This document shows, in pieces, positions 910 through 8,386 of a stretch of DNA of 8,386 bases; position 1 is the stretch's first letter; every line of letters begins with the position of its first letter. The notes beneath the pieces are model-generated. The model was not told the DNA's origin. It made no database searches and was given only the letters and a program-made list of their open reading frames with translations. The DNA comes from a virus. Lineage: Monodnaviria > Loebvirae > Hofneiviricota > Faserviricetes > Tubulavirales > Inoviridae. The stretch lies in IMG/VR virus record IMGVR_UViG_2703718850_000001; one strand, 5' to 3'. The translations under genes and the position numbers were made by a program.

Positions 910-938
910 TTTTGACATAACTTTACATTATGCGCACC
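910..938. other. dif-like XerC/XerD recombination site (candidate IMEX attachment junction)
   Basis: Minus strand reads GGTGCGCATAA-TGTAAAG-TTATGTCAAAA. Against the E. coli dif consensus GGTGCGCATAA-TGTATA-TTATGTTAAAT the XerC arm is 11/11, the XerD arm 9/11 and the central region is 7 bp rather than 6. It sits in the non-coding gap between the microvirus-like genes and the inovirus-side genes. Confidence 0.55.
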
Positions 939-976
939 AATGGTAAGGATGGCGGGAACTGGCGTTACCGGTGCCG

Positions 977-1210
977 TCATTGGTCACAGACCGTAATCCA
1001 CTGGCCCAGGACGTCTTTCAGGCAATGTTGGCATAAATCCAGTTTTAAGCGATTACTGTCACCAAAAATTGAACCGTATCCAGCTAAGTGATTAACAGAC
1101 AGAAACTCATTGAACTCAATGTCATCTACCACCGTCTTCGCATGGCGACCACAGCGATCGCAGGTCTTCGCACATAACATTACAGTATCGCTGGATGTGA
1201 AAAATTGCAT
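977..1210 (-). CDS. Hypothetical 77-aa protein with CxxC...CxxC (putative zinc ribbon)
   Basis: ATG at 1210 with GGAG 6 nt upstream (minus strand), TGA stop at 977-979. Two Cys pairs, CDRC and CQHC, about 40 residues apart. No homologue recognised. Lies between phage gene IV and the dif-like site. Confidence 0.5.
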   Translation of the reverse strand: MQFFTSSDTVMLCAKTCDRCGRHAKTVVDDIEFNEFLSVNHLAGYGSIFGDSNRLKLDLCQHCLKDVLGQWITVCDQ

Positions 1211-1327
1211 TTTATCTCCTCGTAATGCTGCCGCGCCGAATCAGCAATAACGCTAAAAAAACAGAATTGTTCGGCTTGGCCAACCCCTGACACTAACAAA
1301 AGCAAGTTTTGTCACTGTCCGGAGTTA

Positions 1328-1636
1328 TCATATAAACCAATAGACCGTCCTTACGCCATTCTGGTTATCAATAACATAGCCGCATTGTTTCCTTAAAAAT
1401 TCTTCTGCTAAATCAATGGCTTTTACAGAAATCTCATAAGAAGGAAGTAAAGTGTATCCTTTCCCTTCACTGGCAGCTGCTTTGATCGCATCCAGAGTAT
1501 TATCAATCAGTAACAGAGCAAGTGATGCTTCATTTACCTGAGCCGAAGAACTTCTGGCTGCAAGTGTCATTGTTTTTGCTTCTTCCGCTGTAATCGTTCG
1601 TTCTGCCAGAGCAGATAAAATCCCATAAGAATCCAT
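1328..1636 (-). CDS. Hypothetical 102-aa protein (unknown function)
   Basis: ATG at 1636 with a weak GGGG Shine-Dalgarno upstream, TGA stop at 1328-1330. Same strand as the phage genes, directly downstream of gene IV. No homologue recognised. Confidence 0.45.
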   Translation of the reverse strand: MDSYGILSALAERTITAEEAKTMTLAARSSSAQVNEASLALLLIDNTLDAIKAAASEGKGYTLLPSYEISVKAIDLAEEFLRKQCGYVIDNQNGVRTVYWFI

Positions 1637-1657
1637 TAGTTACCCCAATCAATAATG

Positions 1658-1715
1658 TCCATTTGATGGATAGCGAGCAGGGCTCACGCACCTACCCGCT
1701 ATCCATCAAAGTGGA
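1658..1715 (-). other. Long imperfect hairpin overlapping the gene IV stop codon (possible terminator or packaging-signal-like element)
   Basis: 14-bp perfect stem TTTGATGGATAGCG (1662-1675) pairs with CGCTATCCATCAAA (1697-1710), extended to about 18 bp with one bulge; 21-nt loop. Only a weakly T-rich tail follows on the minus strand. Confidence 0.3.
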
Positions 1716-2971
1716 CGAATGATATGTGCTGTAAGCAAAATATACATAATACGCTGTTCATTGCTGTCTGCCTTGCTACTGAAAATCCAGCCTATAAGAG
1801 GAATTTTACTTATAACTGGAACTGAACGCTCGGCATTGCTGAACGATGAATCGATAAGCCCCCCCAATAACAACGTCTGACCATCCTTAATCTGGACTGT
1901 CGTCTGAATCTGGCGCTGATTAGTAATAATATCGGATGCCTGATCATCATTGCTGATTGAATCAGCGCGAGTGTCGATAGTCAGAACTAGTTGCCCGTTA
2001 CCCATGACAACAGGCGTTACCTTGAGAGAAACGCCAACATCATGACGCTCGATAGTCTGAAACGGATTATTTACCCCGGCAGATTCGCCCGTTACCTTTC
2101 CGGTGATAAACGGCACATTCTTACCTACGGAAATGTAACCAGTCTGACCAGACTGAGTAAGAATACGCGGCGTTGAAATCACCTTAGAGCGTGAATTACT
2201 CTGGACAGCACGCAGAGACAGCGCCAACACGTTACCATCAAAAATACCAAAAGAACCGCCCGCCGTAGAAAGAGCGCTACCCAGTGCAGAAGTATTAAAG
2301 CCCCCCGCAACCTTATGACCGGATGCAGAACCTGCCGCAAACGATAAATCAACGCCATCAGACAAGCTGGTTTCAAACATCAGCGACTGAATGAGAACCT
2401 GATCGCGGGCAACATCCACAGAATTGATAAAATCGGACAGAACCGGCAGCAGCTCGTCAGGCGCAGAAACAATCAGCGAGTTATTGCCTGGATAATCCAC
2501 GACATTACCACCACCATTAGAATCAAGATAAATTTTAATCAGTTGCTGAACATCGGACGATCTAACTTTTGTCAGCTTAAAATTTCTGACCGTAAGCGCC
2601 ACAGGTACTGGCTGGTAAGATGGCTCAGAAGGAAAAGTATCATAAGACTGGTTATCAGAATCATCGGAATCCGAAACCATCTGTGAAGGTAATTTAGACG
2701 GCAAAGAGACTACCGCAGGATTGCCAGAAAGCATGACAAAACCGTTAGCATTCAGAACAGACTTAAAGAAATCATCAATATTTGCTGGATTAACATCAGC
2801 ATTAAATACGGTTACGTTTCCTTTAATATCAGGATTAACAATAACAGGCTTGCCAGTTTTTGAAGAATACCACTGAACAAATGAGCGAACAGATGAATTA
2901 TTTAAATTAACAGTTTCAGCAGAAACGCAGAATGAATAGGCAAATAAAAAAGCAACAATAACAGAGCGCAT
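1706..2971 (-). CDS. IV: Filamentous phage pIV secretin (outer-membrane export channel)
   Basis: 421 aa from ATG 2971-2969 (AGGAG 9 nt upstream), signal-peptide-like MRSVIVAFLFAYSFCVSA. Long runs match remembered M13 pIV (e.g. GKNVPFITGKVTGESAGVNNPFQTIER, QTLLLGGL, SKIPLIGW). The ORF-track extension to 3064 is an upstream alternative-start artefact overlapping gene I. Confidence 0.9.
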   Translation of the reverse strand: MRSVIVAFLFAYSFCVSAETVNLNNSSVRSFVQWYSSKTGKPVIVNPDIKGNVTVFNADVNPANIDDFFKSVLNANGFVMLSGNPAVVSLPSKLPSQMVSDSDDSDNQSYDTFPSEPSYQPVPVALTVRNFKLTKVRSSDVQQLIKIYLDSNGGGNVVDYPGNNSLIVSAPDELLPVLSDFINSVDVARDQVLIQSLMFETSLSDGVDLSFAAGSASGHKVAGGFNTSALGSALSTAGGSFGIFDGNVLALSLRAVQSNSRSKVISTPRILTQSGQTGYISVGKNVPFITGKVTGESAGVNNPFQTIERHDVGVSLKVTPVVMGNGQLVLTIDTRADSISNDDQASDIITNQRQIQTTVQIKDGQTLLLGGLIDSSFSNAERSVPVISKIPLIGWIFSSKADSNEQRIMYILLTAHIIRPL

Positions 2972-2978
2972 AATAATA

Positions 2979-3353
2979 TTACTCCTGACAGGTAACAGTC
3001 TGTAAATAACGGCCTTTTCTAATAACAACACGACAGGCATCTTTAATATCAACGGAATAACCATCTTTAATCAAATCAAAATACTGATATTTCATACCTT
3101 TTGCATCAACAAACGTAACGGAAACGTCAAAGCCAAGTTGTGAAAAAGAATTAATAGAAAGTCGGGGTAAGTCACTGGACGAATCAGGCGTTACCGCCCT
3201 CGCCTGTTCAGCATAAGCAGATTTAATAGCTGAGATTTCATCAACATTCTTTCCAGACTGGAGCCAGAAACCAAACGCAAGCCCCAGCGCCAAAAAAGAA
3301 AGCATTAATATAAGACGGTTCGATTTGCGAAAATAAATTTTAGTGAGGCGCAT
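2979..3353 (-). CDS. XI: Putative pXI (in-frame internal start within gene I)
   Basis: In-frame ATG at 3353-3351 is Met241 of pI, the same position as M13 pXI, with GAGGA upstream; the downstream hydrophobic segment matches the pI membrane anchor. Inferred by analogy with Ff only. Confidence 0.4.
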   Translation of the reverse strand: MRLTKIYFRKSNRLILMLSFLALGLAFGFWLQSGKNVDEISAIKSAYAEQARAVTPDSSSDLPRLSINSFSQLGFDVSVTFVDAKGMKYQYFDLIKDGYSVDIKDACRVVIRKGRYLQTVTCQE

Positions 3354-4073
3354 ATAATAATTAAATCCTCTGTGAACAGAAAATTGACCGTGCGTGATAA
3401 ATGGTGGCAAAAGCGAAAATGCGCCATGAGGATAATTATCTGTGAACGCTTGTTTGGTATTGTAAGCAGAATAAAGAGATTTTCCTGTATATATCCATTT
3501 ATCAACAGTGATTGAATTAACATTATCACCATATTTGACAATGCCAAAGTGTACCTTTGGTAAAGAAAATCTCGCCCCTGAAACCAAATTCATAATGGAG
3601 CCAACAAAAGGAATGTTTAATTTATCTGAACGGCGACAATAAACAACATGCTCAGCAAGCGCCAGACGAGCTTGCTTATCCATTATCGAAATATCCTGAA
3701 TCAAAAATATAATATCCCAGCCTAATTTTCTGGCATGTAAAAACCAGTCAATAACAGATTGTCTGTCTTTATCACCCCATGAGCGGGAATTAAACCAAGT
3801 ACCACATTCATCAAGTACAAGGAGGCCATTACGGGATTCATCGTAAGATGTATTCCCAATACCAATAGCAAGTAAATCATTTAATGAAGGCTTGTCAGGA
3901 ATGCGAATAACGCGCGTTTTTTTCGCATAACGCCCAACCATAGGCATATTATGCAATTTAAGATCAAGATTAGTGGCAACAGGACAACCCTTAGCAAGTC
4001 TTTCCTGTATTCTGGAAACACTAACAAGTGTCTTGCCTGAGCCTAATTTGCCTGTTACTACATAAACCGCCAT
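2979..4073 (-). CDS. I: Filamentous phage pI assembly ATPase (Zot-like)
   Basis: 364 aa; N-terminus MAVYVVTGKLGSGKTLVSV (Walker A) and much of the sequence closely match remembered M13 pI (MAVYFVTGKLGSGKTLVSV...LLVLDECGTWFN...HARKLGWDIIFL...). Start ATG 4073-4071 abuts the gene VI stop (TAAATG). Confidence 0.92.
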   Translation of the reverse strand: MAVYVVTGKLGSGKTLVSVSRIQERLAKGCPVATNLDLKLHNMPMVGRYAKKTRVIRIPDKPSLNDLLAIGIGNTSYDESRNGLLVLDECGTWFNSRSWGDKDRQSVIDWFLHARKLGWDIIFLIQDISIMDKQARLALAEHVVYCRRSDKLNIPFVGSIMNLVSGARFSLPKVHFGIVKYGDNVNSITVDKWIYTGKSLYSAYNTKQAFTDNYPHGAFSLLPPFITHGQFSVHRGFNYYMRLTKIYFRKSNRLILMLSFLALGLAFGFWLQSGKNVDEISAIKSAYAEQARAVTPDSSSDLPRLSINSFSQLGFDVSVTFVDAKGMKYQYFDLIKDGYSVDIKDACRVVIRKGRYLQTVTCQE

Positions 4074-4415
4074 TTAAATCACCCTGTTTGCATAATCAAG
4101 AAATTTTTGTTTTAAATCGAAAACAAAAACACTGATACGAGTAACCATAATAACGTTAACACACGCCTGAAAATGGTCAGGCAATACAGACGCCATTAAA
4201 TGGGAGAAATCAGCAGGTAAACCGTTATACATGACCTCAGCAAGGTACTGCATTAAAAGCGTAACAGTTGTTGTAATTAATGCGACCAATGCAAAGGCGA
4301 TTAATCCTGTTCTGGTAGCAAGTCGAGCTAAAAAACTCGCCACATAGCCAATAAACAAAGGGACAAGACCAATAAGAAAACGCAACAATGCAGGAATACC
4401 TAATAATAAAGGCAT
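4074..4415 (-). CDS. VI: Filamentous phage pVI minor coat protein
   Basis: 113 aa from ATG 4415-4413, [14 protein letters not shown] versus M13 pVI MPVLLGIPLLLRF; hydrophobic throughout. AAGGAGGT Shine-Dalgarno upstream. The gene III C-terminal frame stop overlaps this start as TGATG. Confidence 0.8.
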   Translation of the reverse strand: MPLLLGIPALLRFLIGLVPLFIGYVASFLARLATRTGLIAFALVALITTTVTLLMQYLAEVMYNGLPADFSHLMASVLPDHFQACVNVIMVTRISVFVFDLKQKFLDYANRVI

Positions 4416-4833
4416 CACTCACCTCCTTTGCGAAGCAATGAAGTTAAAGAAGTAAAGACATACCAGAACGTAAGGCAATAAAAAACCCATGAAAGAACAT
4501 CTTTAATAGTCAGTAATTTATCGCAACCAATATCAATCTGATAAACCTCTCCGGGAAAAATAATAAAATCAGAGCAGCCGTTACCATTGGGTAAATTAGG
4601 CAGCATAGCACCTTTATTTAAAAATGCTTCCCATAAAGCACCGTGAGAATCCTTTTCAATTCCCAATTCAGAATCAGCCAAAGTAGAAGCGCCATCTAAT
4701 TCAGAGTCGCCCTTTCCATAACGAGAATCACCACCTGAAGGGTCAGCAAAACGGCCAGCCCCCCGCGTAAGATTGTTAATGGAATCGTCAAGACGATTTA
4801 TATTATTCCTGGTTTGTTCATCGGCATTTTTTT
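4415..4833 (-). CDS. III: Gene III g3p C-terminal domain in the -1 frame (frameshifted continuation; pseudogene or slippage product)
   Basis: This frame is open from the A7 tract (plus 4827-4833) to TGA at 4417-4415. It encodes ...[51 protein letters not shown]..., resembling the M13 g3p C-terminal anchor (...ECRPFVFGAGKPYEFSIDCDKINLFRGVFAFLLYVATFMYVFSTF). It has no start of its own; the track's 4681 start is TTG. Confidence 0.7.
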
Positions 4834-5649
4834 ATCATCTGATGAAGTGTCTTTCTCCGTTAATTTATCATGAATATCGCTGGCTATTTTGGGTGAAGCA
4901 CCTTCGATCGCAGACTGAATATCACCTTTAGAAAGACTGGAACCACTAGAGCCACCGCCAGAACTACCGCCACCGGACTCACCACCGCCAGACTCACCAC
5001 CGCCGGACTCACCACCGCCAGACTCACCACCACCATTTTGGGGGGGTGAGGGTTTATCAGAGGGGTCAGCTACAGCACCTGTAGGCTTCCATGTTGCAGC
5101 GCAAACAGTACCATCACCCTGACAAACAATGACACCAGTAGCCTCATATTCACAGCCGTTATAGTAGATATAGCGACCACCATCATATGAATCAACATTA
5201 TTAAACACACCTTCTTCTGGCGGCTTCGCTTCACAAATTTCTTCTGGTGTCGGGTCAGTAGGTTTTTCATCAGGAACAGAACGCTGAATATTACCAACAA
5301 TATAAGCCGTTAAAGACCAATATTTATCCTTCTGCCCTGGTGAATCGCTGTAAGTACAATCACCAGTAAAAACAAGACGGAATTCAGAATCAGGCCAGAT
5401 ACCCTCATAAGTTGGTTTAACCCGAGTAAATACACTCTGAGCACTGGATTTAGCACCCTGACAAGCGGAGGCCTGCATAGCAGCATCAATATAGTAAACC
5501 GTTGTCTTAGAGCCATCCTGATTGGTTATTTGCTTACTTTCAGCGTAGGCAGAACTTTGATAAGTGGATTTAGTAATGCTTTCCCATGACTCAGCATGTG
5601 AAAAAGGAGAAATGAGGACAGCGGAAAGAATTAATATTTTCCTTTTCAT
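4798..5649 (-). CDS. III: Gene III adsorption protein g3p, N-terminal part (signal peptide, receptor domains, Gly-rich linker); reading frame ends early
   Basis: ATG at 5649-5647 gives [19 protein letters not shown] (signal peptide). A TolA-binding-N1-like segment [29 protein letters not shown] resembles M13 DRYANYEGCLWNATGVVVCTGDETQCYGTW, then a (GGGES)n linker. The frame stops at 4800-4798, 11 codons after an A7 run. The ORF-track extension to 5793 overlaps gene VIII in another frame and is not used. Confidence 0.75.
4951..5034 (-). repeat. Tandem 15-bp coding repeats (about 5 units) encoding the g3p [10 protein letters not shown] linker
   Basis: Plus strand shows repeating units of the form accaccgccagactc / accaccgccggactc; minus strand translation [30 protein letters not shown]. 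Confidence 0.8.
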
Positions 5650-5656
5650 AGTAACC

Positions 5657-5690
5657 CGCTTTAATAAAGGGGCAACGAGTGCCCCTGAGT
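5657..5690 (-). terminator. Rho-independent terminator between gene VIII and gene III
   Basis: On the minus strand, a GC-rich 7-bp stem AGGGGCA/TGCCCCT (5668-5674 pairs with 5680-5686) with a 5-nt loop is followed by TTTATTAAAG, directly after the gene VIII stop. Ff phages have a strong terminator at this position. Confidence 0.6.
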
Positions 5691-5695
5691 GAAAT

Positions 5696-5938
5696 TCAAA
5701 CCGCTTTTGAAGAGAATTTTTTGAAAATACGAATGGCAAGCCCAGCGCCAACCACAGCCACAACAACAGGCCATACTTTACCAATGAGATCATTTGCCTG
5801 AGTCAACAAAGCATCCATTGCCTGACCTGCATAATCAGTACCACCTGTAGCGCCTTCAGCCGCAAAAGAACTTGCAGAAATAAAAAGCGCAGTTGAAGCC
5901 AGAGCAACTTTATATTTAACAGTAGACAGAATTTTCAT
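5696..5938 (-). CDS. VIII: Filamentous phage major coat protein pVIII (IKe-like)
   Basis: 80-aa precursor: signal peptide ending SFA, then mature [54 protein letters not shown]. Acidic N-terminus, hydrophobic core and basic tail [12 protein letters not shown] closely match the remembered IKe coat protein (...[25 protein letters not shown]). ATG at 5938 with GGAG upstream. Confidence 0.92.
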
Positions 5939-5957
5939 AGGAATAACTCCATTAAGG

Positions 5958-6053
5958 TTACATTAATCGGTCAGAAAATGATTTAAATGAACCGACCGCA
6001 TAGAAAAGGGCAAAACCAAAGGTATAAGCCCCGAAGAAATAAACGATATACAT
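5958..6053 (-). CDS. IX: Putative pIX minor coat protein
   Basis: 31 aa, MYIVYFFGAYTFGFALFYAVGSFKSFSDRLM; small and hydrophobic, with C-terminal SDRLM resembling the M13 pIX TRLME region. ATG 6053-6051 overlaps the gene VII stop (TAATG). Too short for the ORF track. Confidence 0.6.
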   Translation of the reverse strand: MYIVYFFGAYTFGFALFYAVGSFKSFSDRLM

Positions 6054-6139
6054 TAACGAAAGACCCCCGCAGTAATCGCGCCGAGGCCAAAAGAAATAAC
6101 GATGCCAGACGCTATCAAAATTTGAATAACATCGTCCAT
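6053..6139 (-). CDS. VII: Putative pVII minor coat protein
   Basis: 28 aa, MDDVIQILIASGIVISFGLGAITAGVFR, resembling M13 pVII (...VVLCFALGIIAGGQR). ATG at 6139-6137 lies 2 nt after the gene V stop; TAA at 6055-6053. Confidence 0.6.
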   Translation of the reverse strand: MDDVIQILIASGIVISFGLGAITAGVFR

Positions 6140-6141
6140 AT

Positions 6142-6459
6142 TTAACCTTTGATCTCTGCGATGCCACCATCGGAAGAAACATTATAAGTTACACCTTCCC
6201 TACCCTCCATTGACCACGCACGGACATAGACAGGAATTTGAACTAATTTCCCAATGAAAGCATTCGCCTGGTTCATTAGACCTGCGTTAACGAGAGCCTG
6301 AGAAACTCGAATAATAATTTGATCCTGCTTTGTACCACCAAAACCATCAGGTATTTCAAGGCCAATACCAATTTCATTATAATAGCCCTGACCATTAACT
6401 TTATTACGTTGGCGGGCTCCCAACATTTTACCCTTAACGAAAAGACCATAATTAGACAT
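6142..6459 (-). CDS. Gene V-position protein (putative ssDNA-binding protein, assigned by synteny)
   Basis: 105 aa, ATG at 6459 with AAGGAAAG upstream, between gene II and gene VII exactly where Ff gene V sits. I do not recognise similarity to M13 or IKe gVp, so the function is inferred from position only. Confidence 0.45.
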   Translation of the reverse strand: MSNYGLFVKGKMLGARQRNKVNGQGYYNEIGIGLEIPDGFGGTKQDQIIIRVSQALVNAGLMNQANAFIGKLVQIPVYVRAWSMEGREGVTYNVSSDGGIAEIKG

Positions 6460-6470
6460 ATTACTTTCCT

Positions 6471-6785
6471 TTAATGCCAGCTACTGGCGTGCGAAATACG
6501 GTTGTAATCGAAAATAAAACCTTTCTCATAAATCCATAAGGGGATTTCCGCTGGCTTGGCTTCCAGCGTTCTTATTAGCGGAACAACGTTATTAGAGTCT
6601 GGTGAATCACAATAGAAATTAATATCGATACCGAACGAAAGCAATTCTCTTCTATGGCGATAAAAAGTGTTATGAGGTAACATTTCTTTCATGTTAGCCC
6701 CTTGTTTCCAAAGTAAATAAGTTGACTGTATTTTTCTTGGCAGTTTCGTTATTTTTTCATCACTTAAAATAGCATTCTGATTCAT
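6471..6785 (-). CDS. X: Putative pX (in-frame internal start within gene II)
   Basis: In-frame ATG at 6785-6783 with GGGAG 8 nt upstream; product MNQNAILSDEK... (104 aa) aligns with the start of M13 pX (MNIYDDSAVLDA...). Inferred by analogy with Ff. Confidence 0.4.
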   Translation of the reverse strand: MNQNAILSDEKITKLPRKIQSTYLLWKQGANMKEMLPHNTFYRHRRELLSFGIDINFYCDSPDSNNVVPLIRTLEAKPAEIPLWIYEKGFIFDYNRISHASSWH

Positions 6786-7565
6786 TTCTATTCTCCCTAC
6801 ATATTCAGAGAATAATTGACGTGGTGTTTTCATATTCCAGTTAGCGCCAAGCGTTAAATTTAAATCAATAAGCTCAGTTGTTCTTAATGTTAATTCAATA
6901 CGTAATTTATCTTTCGTCCAGTCCAGTAACCCGGCTCGTACAAACTCTTCGGCTATCTGGTGCCCTTTTTTACCAGAAACGTGTTCATCATATTTTGAAT
7001 AAAATTTCAGACTCCATCGACGGGAGTTTTTACCTAAATAAACTGTACCGCCTTTCCCACATGCGCGACCATGGCGTGTTTTAGCTTTAAATTCGGCGGC
7101 ATAAAGCCATGATCTGACATTTTCCAGCGTAGATAATGAATACATGTAATTAATGTCAACACGTGAAATTTTATACTGACCTGCCATAACGGCTTTATAA
7201 GACGCTAAATCATGAGGAATATTCAATAAGGATAAAATCCTGGCATAGACCGTCAACATGAGCCCTTGTATATCATCCGACCCAACAACAGAATGCCCCT
7301 GCAGAAACTTGGAAGGATTACCATCAATGTACAAATGTGTCGCTTTACCTTCGCCATTAGATCCTATCGATCGTACTTTCATCGTTGCTTCATGCGAGCC
7401 GCGAACAGTCAGTCGCTTAACGGTTTCCCACTCAATTGCACCGTCAGCATCAACGCTGACAACACTCCCCGCCGGAAGCGGTTTGTGTGTGCAAGGGAAA
7501 ATCCCGGTAAGCCAATCGATCACGAATAAATCCTCAAAATTGCAAAAATGACGACTTACTAACAC
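6471..7565 (-). CDS. II: Rolling-circle replication initiator pII (gene II); start uncertain
   Basis: Matches remembered M13 pII at NPSKFLQGHSVVG (M13 PAKVLQGHNVFG) and SNNVVPLIR (M13 CNNVVPLVR). The track start at 7565 is GTG; a better-supported start is GTG 7520-7518, preceded by GAGGA, giving about 349 aa. Shorter than M13 pII (410 aa). Confidence 0.85.
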   Translation of the reverse strand: MLVSRHFCNFEDLFVIDWLTGIFPCTHKPLPAGSVVSVDADGAIEWETVKRLTVRGSHEATMKVRSIGSNGEGKATHLYIDGNPSKFLQGHSVVGSDDIQGLMLTVYARILSLLNIPHDLASYKAVMAGQYKISRVDINYMYSLSTLENVRSWLYAAEFKAKTRHGRACGKGGTVYLGKNSRRWSLKFYSKYDEHVSGKKGHQIAEEFVRAGLLDWTKDKLRIELTLRTTELIDLNLTLGANWNMKTPRQLFSEYVGRIEMNQNAILSDEKITKLPRKIQSTYLLWKQGANMKEMLPHNTFYRHRRELLSFGIDINFYCDSPDSNNVVPLIRTLEAKPAEIPLWIYEKGFIFDYNRISHASSWH

Positions 7566-7692
7566 ATGAGTTCAGTAGTTCATTAGTGTTTTAACATTAC
7601 ACCAGTGAGCTAGTGAGTTCAAGAGGCTTGGATGATATGAGTTCATGAGCATGTATACTCACTTCAAATATTGCATTGAACGAGCGTAAAAA
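7566..7692. promoter_or_regulatory. Divergent intergenic control region with repeated TGAGTTCA motifs (candidate operator or origin repeats and promoters)
   Basis: ATGAGTTCA at 7566-7574 and 7637-7645, GTGAGTTCA at 7613-7621, plus partial copies (TAGTTCA 7576-7582, AGTGAGC 7604-7610). Candidate minus-strand promoter for gene II: TTGAAC (plus 7617-7622), 17-bp spacer, TAATGT (plus 7594-7599). Candidate plus-strand -10 TATACT at 7654-7659 for the regulator gene. Confidence 0.4.
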
Positions 7693-7875
7693 ATGGCAAA
7701 GCGCACGACTTATAACGTGACGGAAGAAAGAAAAATGAAACTAGAACGACTGGCTATAAATGCCAGTGTAAAACTAGGAAAAACAATTACATGGACAGAG
7801 ATTTTAGGTTATCTGATTGATAACTACTCTAAAGATGCAGCAGAAGATCTCATGTCTGCCAAACAAAAGGATTAA
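7693..7875 (+). CDS. Ribbon-helix-helix (CopG/Arc-like) transcriptional regulator, candidate phage repressor
   Basis: 60 aa, MAKRTTYNVTEERKMKLERLAINASVKLGKTITWTEILGYLIDNYSKD. The pattern (basic N-terminal strand, then two helices) matches the remembered CopG fold (MKKRLTITLSESVLENLEKMAREMGLSKSAMISVALENYKK). Divergently transcribed from gene II, like rstR relative to rstA in CTXphi. Confidence 0.55.
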   Translation: MAKRTTYNVTEERKMKLERLAINASVKLGKTITWTEILGYLIDNYSKDAAEDLMSAKQKD

Positions 7876-7893
7876 GTACCACGAATGGTACAA

Positions 7894-7930
7894 ACGTGCA
7901 GTATTACCAACACTGCACGTTCTTTATTGT
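7894..7930 (+). terminator. Rho-independent terminator downstream of the RHH gene
   Basis: 9-bp stem ACGTGCAGT (7894-7902) pairs with ACTGCACGT (7912-7920), 9-nt loop, followed by TCTTTATTGTG. Confidence 0.5.
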
Positions 7931-7963
7931 GCGAATTTTGAACAGTGAAAAAGGATCAAAAGG

Positions 7964-8386
7964 ATGAGTAGAAATAACGAAACAAGCGGCGTTGAACTGG
8001 TTGTCGTCGGCGTATTTGCTTTCTGTCTGGCAGTTGTTGCCTGGCTAATGAAAACTTTCGATGTTGAATGGCAAACAGCACTGGAAACTGCGCCTGGCCT
8101 GGTAGTCTGGTTGCTTGCTGTCGGAGCGGGGATCTTTTTCGGGATCAAAATGGAAACAGGTCTTGTTCGCTGGGGTGCTCCACTGGCGATCGCCCTTCTG
8201 ATTCCGGTATTCAAACCAATTCTTAAGGAAGCTGCCGGAGTACGTGAAATGGGTGGGTTGGTTTTCGATGATATGGTTTCGTGGTACGGAACTGGCTGGG
8301 GAATGTCGTTGATGTTTTTCGGAATTCTTATCATTGGATACGGACTTCTTTATTGGTGGCACAGAAGAAACTCATATTACTGGTAA
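7964..8386 (+). CDS. Small integral membrane protein (about 4 predicted TM segments), unknown function
   Basis: 140 aa; ATG at 7964 preceded by AAAGG/AAGGA; hydrophobic stretches VVVGVFAFCLAVVAWLM, LVVWLLAVGAGIFFGI, APLAIALLIPVF, MSLMFFGILIIGYGLLYWW. Stop TAA is the last three bases of the window. Preferred over the overlapping minus-strand ORF 7924-8334, which is Pro/Thr/Ser-rich and low in complexity. Confidence 0.5.
   Translation: MSRNNETSGVELVVVGVFAFCLAVVAWLMKTFDVEWQTALETAPGLVVWLLAVGAGIFFGIKMETGLVRWGAPLAIALLIPVFKPILKEAAGVREMGGLVFDDMVSWYGTGWGMSLMFFGILIIGYGLLYWWHRRNSYYW

Follow-up and report, generated by a model that had tools for sequence, protein, structure and literature searches.

Putative operator boxes beside gene II of a CUS-1/Ypf-like filamentous prophage and their inheritance with a small, predicted ribbon-helix-helix protein

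The prophage and its intergenic region

Most of the window, the whole 8386-bp stretch of DNA analysed here, is taken up by a filamentous prophage of the CUS-1/Ypf group, extending from about 913 to 8386. Its genes for the secretin (1706-3064), Zot/pI (2979-4073), pVI, pIII and pVIII, G5P (6142-6459) and the 350-aa rolling-circle initiator pII (gene II, 6471-7523) lie on the minus strand. Gene II is the presumed regulated target in what follows, and its product matches the Pfam families Phage_CRI (E 4.7e-71) and G2P_X_C (E 2.3e-29). The likely start codon of gene II is the GTG at 7523, the same start being used in the RefSeq annotation of identical E. coli prophages, and a GAGGA ribosome-binding site lies 7 nt upstream of it (7535->7531). 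The true intergenic region is therefore 7524-7692. On its far side, and divergent from gene II, a gene for a 60-aa protein occupies 7693-7875 on the plus strand. The prophage is 99% identical to prophages found at the dif locus in 47 complete E. coli genomes, that of UM146 for example, and equally to a free 7.9-kb circle from Salmonella (NZ_CP140410.1, L002). The dif-locus CUS-1/Ypf group of filamentous phages has been described previously, including an RstR-like HTH protein encoded at the position of the regulator (PMC4266046). A blastn search with 7400-7960 matched none of the GenBank phages, and an Rfam scan of the window found no family.

The remainder of the window, from 1 to about 912, is not inoviral: it comes from a prophage of a gokushovirus (Microviridae), of which it covers the 3' part, with genes for the DNA pilot protein VP2 (1-771) and an Arg-rich ORF of 39 aa (774-893); its DNA is 85% identical to Microvirus mar4. 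Gokushovirus and inovirus meet around 913-940 in a dif-like site that reads GGTGCGCATAATGTAAAGTTATGTCAA in reverse complement, so that two different ssDNA phages stand in tandem at dif. The integration of gokushoviruses at dif is already known (PMC7062461). Further observations concern the filamentous phage itself. Its pIII gene contains a 15-nt tandem repeat of 5.6 copies at 4952-5035, encoding a GGGES linker. The non-coding stretch 1211-1327 is conserved at 74% with positions 4882-4988 of L004, though the neighbouring genes differ; its signal for ssDNA structure is modest (z -2.7), and it is a candidate packaging signal or minus-strand origin. Downstream of the regulator gene the cargo slot is variable, since the 140-aa membrane-protein ORF of the window (7964-8386) is replaced in the Salmonella circle NZ_CP140410.1 by a Doc/Fic-family toxin gene (5067-5801). 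Matches to many E. coli prophages come as two pieces. The genome of E. coli EC5502 (L006, NZ_CP092647.1) matches the phage in 15-16 places, among them copies in which the regulator carries a frameshift (P0069) and gene II is split, giving the impression of a large array of phage copies in decay.

The small regulator, the boxes and the predicted promoters

The 60-aa protein belongs to PHROG 2503, annotated as being of 'unknown function' and without a Pfam family, which comprises 63 clusters at 50% identity in an exhaustive profile search. The preliminary description had guessed it to be a ribbon-helix-helix (RHH) regulator. In RHH proteins, helix A is joined to helix B by a turn of the form G-x-(S/T/N). 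AlphaFold2 monomer models made with 15 and then with 48 sequences have the same topology (pLDDT 81, then 95), in which an extended stretch at residues 1-10 (KRTTYNVT) is followed by a helix at 11-28, a turn at G29-K30-T31 and a second helix at 34-58. The model thus contains the RHH feature of an N-terminal strand and two helices within about 45 residues, and G29-K30-T31 is found at the predicted inter-helix loop, with T31 invariant in the close family. The N-terminal strand, which in RHH homodimers pairs with its counterpart and inserts into the major groove, is unpaired in the monomer model, as expected of a prediction that does not show the dimeric β-ribbon.

Sequence searches point the same way below threshold. 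A Pfam search with the 60-aa protein gave nothing significant, and no curated RHH family scored above threshold among 48 relatives, the best being ParG at E 0.055, in five members. Sequence profile searches of the PDB yielded only sub-threshold matches (E 0.16-0.28), all of them, ParG and TTHA0139, to RHH proteins. Comparison of the family profile with that of ParG using hhalign covered the whole RHH domain with 76% probability (E 2.4e-5); here KRVNVNF of ParG, whose sequence was verified against PDB entry 1p94, aligned to KRTTYNV of the 60-aa protein. In the Pfam search the match to the ParG family (PF09274) was below the cut-off. At the level of fold, then, these predictions support a ribbon-helix-helix protein, remotely ParG-like. 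The original guess is supported as regards the fold, through the AlphaFold2 models, the hhalign result and the turn, but does not extend to membership of a curated family, for which the scores remain below threshold.

Three copies of an 8-mer preceded by A or G, accompanied by partial copies, had been noted between gene II and the regulator gene, and the recount bears this out. The exact 8-mer TGAGTTCA occurs on the plus strand at 7567-7574, 7614-7621 and 7638-7645, reading ATGAGTTCA, GTGAGTTCA and ATGAGTTCA, in that order, when the preceding base is included. The partial copies are phased by 8 bp: those at 7559, 7575 and 7606 match the box in at least five of eight positions and lie exactly 8 bp from exact boxes. 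The third box is followed at a distance of 16 bp by an inverted copy, TATACTCA (7654), with 6/8 matching positions. There is a fourth exact copy far off, on the minus strand at 1111-1118. The expectation for TGAGTTCA is 0.34 copies in the 8386-bp window and none of 200 dinucleotide shuffles reached the four observed, so that three copies within 79 bp are far beyond chance. One-mismatch copies outside the repeat region are not enriched (9 found, 7.5 expected).

The 8-bp phase was also seen when 21 boxes from seven distinct related phages were pooled. Their neighbours at -8 and +8 match the box on average in 5.0 and 4.9 of 8 positions, compared with only 1.4-3.1 at the other offsets from 4 to 14. 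Each 8-mer is a whole pseudo-palindromic box, TGA-RY-TCA, recurring with an 8-bp period, and not the half-site first suggested. Box orientation flips between phages, TGAGTTCA in some corresponding to TGAACTCA in others.

The boxes of the window fall into three clusters, here treated as putative operators. O1 (7559-7590) consists of four in-phase 8-bp boxes, CTAACACA, the exact TGAGTTCA at 7567-7574, GTAGTTCA and TTAGTGTT, and aligns in relatives with palindromic AACTCATGAGTT or with tandem TGAACTxA boxes. O2 (7606-7621) consists of TGAGCTAG and then the exact TGAGTTCA at 7614-7621; the TGAGTTCAA that it contains is invariant in 8/8 phages and includes TTGAAC, the -35 hexamer of a leftward promoter. 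O3 (7638-7661) comprises the exact TGAGTTCA at 7638-7645, TGAGCATG and TATACTCA. O3 stands in 8-bp phase with O2 at a distance of 24 bp, or 3 x 8, so that the stretch 7606-7661 may be regarded as a single array of seven boxes, of which the two in the middle are degenerate. A search of the repeat region for ssDNA structure, such as an origin or packaging hairpin, found none (z +0.31), as expected for a duplex protein-binding site. The distant fourth copy of the 8-mer forms part of a box pair, GAAACTCA-T-TGAACTCA at 1102-1118, far from the operators and inside an ORF of 77 aa (977-1210, minus strand). UTI89 lacks the gene that contains this pair in the window, and the pair could be either a chance occurrence or a distal operator.

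Two back-to-back promoters are predicted at these clusters. The leftward one, that of gene II, is placed at 7594-7622 on the minus strand, with -35 TTGAAC (7622->7617), a 17-bp spacer and -10 TAATGT (7599->7594). In the window it is weak, agreeing with the consensus in 7/12 positions, and was not called by the promoter scan there; none of the eight distinct intergenic regions of the TGAGTTCA group lacks its skeleton, TTGAAC-17/18-TAnnnT, and the scan independently calls it in L009 (TTGAAC-17-TATTAT) and L003 (TTGAAC-18-TATATT). The rightward, regulator promoter is placed at 7632-7659 on the plus strand (-35 ATGATA, 16 bp, -10 TATACT at 7654-7659) and was called by the scan in the window itself. 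The T, A and final T of its -10 are invariant columns of the intergenic alignment, and the -10 stands at a fixed distance after box 3 in 7/8 phages. In the predicted gene II promoter, O2 spans the -35 and spacer and O1 would cover about +1 to +28; in the predicted regulator promoter, the spacer is filled by O3, which also overlaps the -10. The overlap of the boxes with the two predicted promoters is conserved in all eight intergenic regions. The invariance of box 2 may be due in part to its -35 role instead of protein binding.

Co-inheritance of boxes and regulator

Homologues of the 60-aa protein were traced to other contigs, a search of GTDB species genomes with the alignment of close relatives having yielded only four loci. 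The regulator gene is divergent from an initiator gene, in the same layout, in all twelve family loci examined. Regulators 56-88% identical to that of the window keep the three box clusters, with start-to-start spacings of 45-53 and 24-25 bp (47 and 24 in the window), yet adjoin three unrelated kinds of initiator. One is the Phage_CRI pII of the window type. Another, of 371-381 aa, aligns with the window pII in BLASTP at 27% over 98 aa (E 0.003). The third, in L021, shares 65% identity with the Rep of L022, which is of the Rep_trans type. The hosts in which the same box is found range from Providencia to Escherichia. Taking 14 loci together, the degenerate box TGARYTCA occurs 41 times in 2193 intergenic bp against five times in 81199 bp elsewhere, an about 300-fold higher density.

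A related pII, conversely, can be found with another regulator. The pII of UTI89 CUS-1 (L007) is 86% identical to that of the window; the gene divergent from that of pII codes for an HTH protein of 148 aa, and no TGAGTTCA box is present between the two genes. In L008, whose pII is 66% identical, the divergent gene encodes a different small protein (PHROG 5219) and is accompanied by TTAGAT repeats. By eye, the HTH cassette of UTI89 (L007 3554-3724) contains TGTCA/TGACA-like motifs and the PHROG-5219 cassette (L008 3526-3642) contains TTAGAT three times. The presence of their own repeats in these alternative cassettes would be consistent with several immunity types.

The limits of the exchange are visible in pairwise blastn comparisons with the window. 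Homology with UTI89 stops at 7522 and resumes at 7865; conversely, only 7561-7857 is shared with L004, which has another initiator type, and only 7560-7869 with L021, which has the third. These breakpoints define an exchangeable cassette of about 7560-7865, comprising the operator array and the regulator gene. Because of the module swaps and their sharp breakpoints, the boxes and the small gene are one exchangeable unit, not tied to pII. The sequences show that this cassette has passed between inovirus backbones that are otherwise unrelated. Shortly before the cassette begins at 7560, the gene II leader at 7536-7558 resembles the 5' end of the regulator gene at 7690-7712 (18/23 nt), possibly as a recombination scar or as a chance match.

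More distant members of the family extend the picture. Four of them, with 39-53% identity, are each divergent from an inovirus initiator gene, these initiators being of four different types, and in three of the four the intergenic region has a short box peculiar to that member, occurring at least three times. The boxes of L023 are GCATGCGC|GCATGCAA, then, 45 bp on from start to start, GCATGCAA|GCATGCTG, and after a further 24 bp GCATGCAT; with its 8-bp tandems and its spacings of 45 and 24 bp, this array comes very close to the 47/24 of the window. L022 has TGTATTCA|TGTATTCA and, 45 bp away, TGAATACA, and L025 has GTATGCA three times, once inverted. Only AT-rich direct repeats were found in the intergenic region of the fourth member, L024. 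According to the alignment, the β-strand residues 4, 8 and 10 differ among these proteins, being R4, N8 and T10 in the window, D, R and N in L023 and R, S and S in L022, and the hydrophobic residues between these positions are kept. Such alternating change is the pattern expected if residues 4, 8 and 10 read the boxes, and we infer that they may do so, the 8-bp box appearing to co-vary with them.

Immediately beyond the cassette, and not part of the operator system, two hairpins and then TTCTTTATTGTG occupy 7876-7931 on the plus strand. Hairpin 1 (7876-7891, GTACCA-CGAA-TGGTAC) follows the stop codon of the regulator gene and has compensatory changes in UTI89 (GTCTCA..TGAGAC); hairpin 2 (7894-7920) has the form ACGTGCAGT-9 nt-ACTGCACGT. 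As ssDNA, the region 7876-7920 folds with z -5.3. This stretch is the sole non-coding DNA co-inherited with the window type of pII, whatever the regulator. The CACGTTCTTTATTGTG after the hairpins matches the M13 nick region over 11 consecutive bases and in a short inverted repeat beside them; specifically, CACGTTCTTTA (7916-7926) is identical to the nick region of the M13 plus origin. This identity made 7916-7931 a candidate for the true plus origin, but the sequence is antisense to gene II and resembles an intrinsic terminator as well. The element at 7876-7931 could terminate transcription of the regulator gene, could contain the pII nick site of an origin, or could do both.

Regulatory interpretation and comparison with known systems

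We consider it likely that the TGAGTTCA boxes are operators of the 60-aa RHH protein, and that the protein represses gene II as well as its own gene; boxes and gene together form a portable cassette. Co-inheritance places the boxes in the regulator cassette; the action of the bound protein, that is its binding, the promoters concerned and the direction of regulation, we infer from box positions and predicted fold. One dimer would bind each 8-bp pseudo-palindromic TGA-RY-TCA box, and the 8-bp phase would allow neighbouring dimers to bind cooperatively. Occupancy of O1 and O2 would repress the gene II promoter and so turn off replication and the structural operon, and occupancy of O3 would make the regulator gene autoregulated. 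The outcome would be a prophage-silencing switch and probably an immunity switch.

The preliminary description had offered two readings of the repeats, and the question of whether the prophage is repressor-controlled hung on the choice between them. According to one, they are iteron-like recognition repeats at the plus-strand origin, where bound pII would position nicking. Their place directly upstream of gene II, on the side of the Ff origin in the M13 layout, and the superficial likeness of three direct repeats to initiator-binding repeats speak for this. It fails on the comparisons, and we give it almost no weight: the boxes are missing beside the 86% identical pII of UTI89 and present beside two initiator types unrelated to the window pII, the breakpoint of the cassette coincides exactly with the start codon of gene II, and the box unit of 8 bp compares with 17-22 bp for iterons. 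Moreover, 7524-7692 is without a nick-like motif or hairpin, the only M13-like nick motif being CACGTTCTTTA, outside the cassette. The other reading, of operator half-sites for the RHH protein in the manner of rstR/ig-2, is retained as regards the operators, on the strength of co-inheritance, predicted RHH fold and promoter overlap, and abandoned as regards the half-sites. The operator reading is well supported by the comparative evidence, which would decide the question in favour of a repressor-controlled prophage.

The protein might instead bind the boxes in a mainly architectural role, as a TraM/TraY-like accessory of replication or of a relaxosome, aiding pII at an origin close by, or in ParG/omega-like centromere or copy control of the episomal RF. 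We think this unlikely: a ParA/ParF-type partner was sought in the window and the 7.9-kb circle and none is encoded, the association of the cassette with three unrelated initiators argues against a specific initiator partnership, and in each of the eight phages the boxes keep step with the promoter elements. An architectural role would also be compatible with repression, given that ParG and omega both repress from arrays of this kind. It is very improbable that the boxes are sites of a host factor, or mere repeats of promoter elements, with the small ORF unrelated to them. The -35 TTGAAC within box 2 would fit such an explanation, as would the response of YpfPhi gene II transcription to the host regulator RovA (PMC4266046), but the box changes with the small protein (TGAGTTCA, TGTATTCA, GCATGC, GTATGCA), the same box recurs across hosts from Providencia to Escherichia, boxes 1 and 3 are away from -35 positions, and a search for a LexA-like box, as in CTXphi ig-2, found none. 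Hardly any likelihood attaches to a toxin-antitoxin pair in which the small RHH protein would be the antitoxin, autoregulated through the boxes as its operator. What lies downstream is not a conserved partner: in the window it is the 140-aa membrane ORF, in L003, L004, L009, L011, L023 and L025 the downstream genes are unrelated or absent, and two hairpins and a T-run separate the regulator from the next gene. The constant partner is the divergent initiator gene.

More tentatively, the operator reading can be widened to a portable heteroimmunity module that has moved among at least three unrelated inovirus backbones, with cassettes of the HTH and PHROG-5219 types defining further immunity groups of dif-integrating Enterobacterales prophages and with ParG-like coating of the 56-bp phased array silencing both divergent promoters; we regard this fuller version as an open possibility, slightly more doubtful than not. 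Since regulator and sites travel as a cassette, cross-immunity groups are predicted. Pathogenic E. coli, Salmonella and Y. pestis carry CUS-1/Ypf-like filamentous prophages at dif. For PHROG 2503, a family found only beside inovirus initiator genes, the analysis provides a concrete predicted function and DNA target, along with a predicted operator code and the identity of the promoters that would be controlled. That an RHH repressor should act on tandem boxes is an already well-known principle; the main value lies in a function and recognition code for an uncharacterised inovirus family and in the evidence of cassette exchange that bears on immunity groups.

Among known systems, rstR/ig-2 of CTXphi offers the same arrangement: in a filamentous phage that integrates at dif, the regulator gene and that of the rolling-circle initiator diverge, the short region between them has several operator sites (putative in the present case), and regulator and intergenic region are swapped as a block between otherwise related phages. 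The RstR-like HTH proteins of YpfPhi and CUS-1 (YPO2273; UTI89 CUS-1) even share the genomic position (PMC4266046). Unlike RstR, the 60-aa protein is a predicted RHH and not an HTH protein, and the two have no sequence relation; unlike ig-2, the region here has 8-bp boxes in phased arrays and no LexA box. A functional precedent for an RHH protein controlling a rolling-circle initiator gene is CopG (RepA) of pMV158. There, however, copG is co-transcribed with repB and acts through one 13-bp pseudo-symmetric element, in contrast to the divergent gene and three box clusters of the prophage. The met-boxes of MetJ, the omega heptads and the Arc and Mnt proteins of P22 have no detectable sequence relationship and belong to other biological contexts. 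The pII-binding repeats of Ff phages (M13/f1) resemble the present boxes in lying upstream of gene II; the likeness to pII repeats or iterons was rejected on account of the boxes not being co-inherited with pII, not lying beside the nick motif and having the wrong unit length.

The closest characterised protein, by profile comparison, is ParG of plasmid TP228, with its OF/parH sites. The 60-aa protein differs from it in scoring below the Pfam ParG threshold, in having no long flexible N-terminal tail and in its setting, the promoters of a phage replication gene and not a partition locus, with no ParF partner. ParG binds as one dimer per ACTC box, the boxes being separated by 4-bp spacers and standing in direct or inverted orientation (PMC3130281). 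Its sites thus share with the boxes described here their shortness, their 8-bp period, their occurrence in either orientation and the presence of degenerate boxes between strong ones (PMC3130281), and TGAGTTCA and TGAACTCA even contain GAGT and ACTC.
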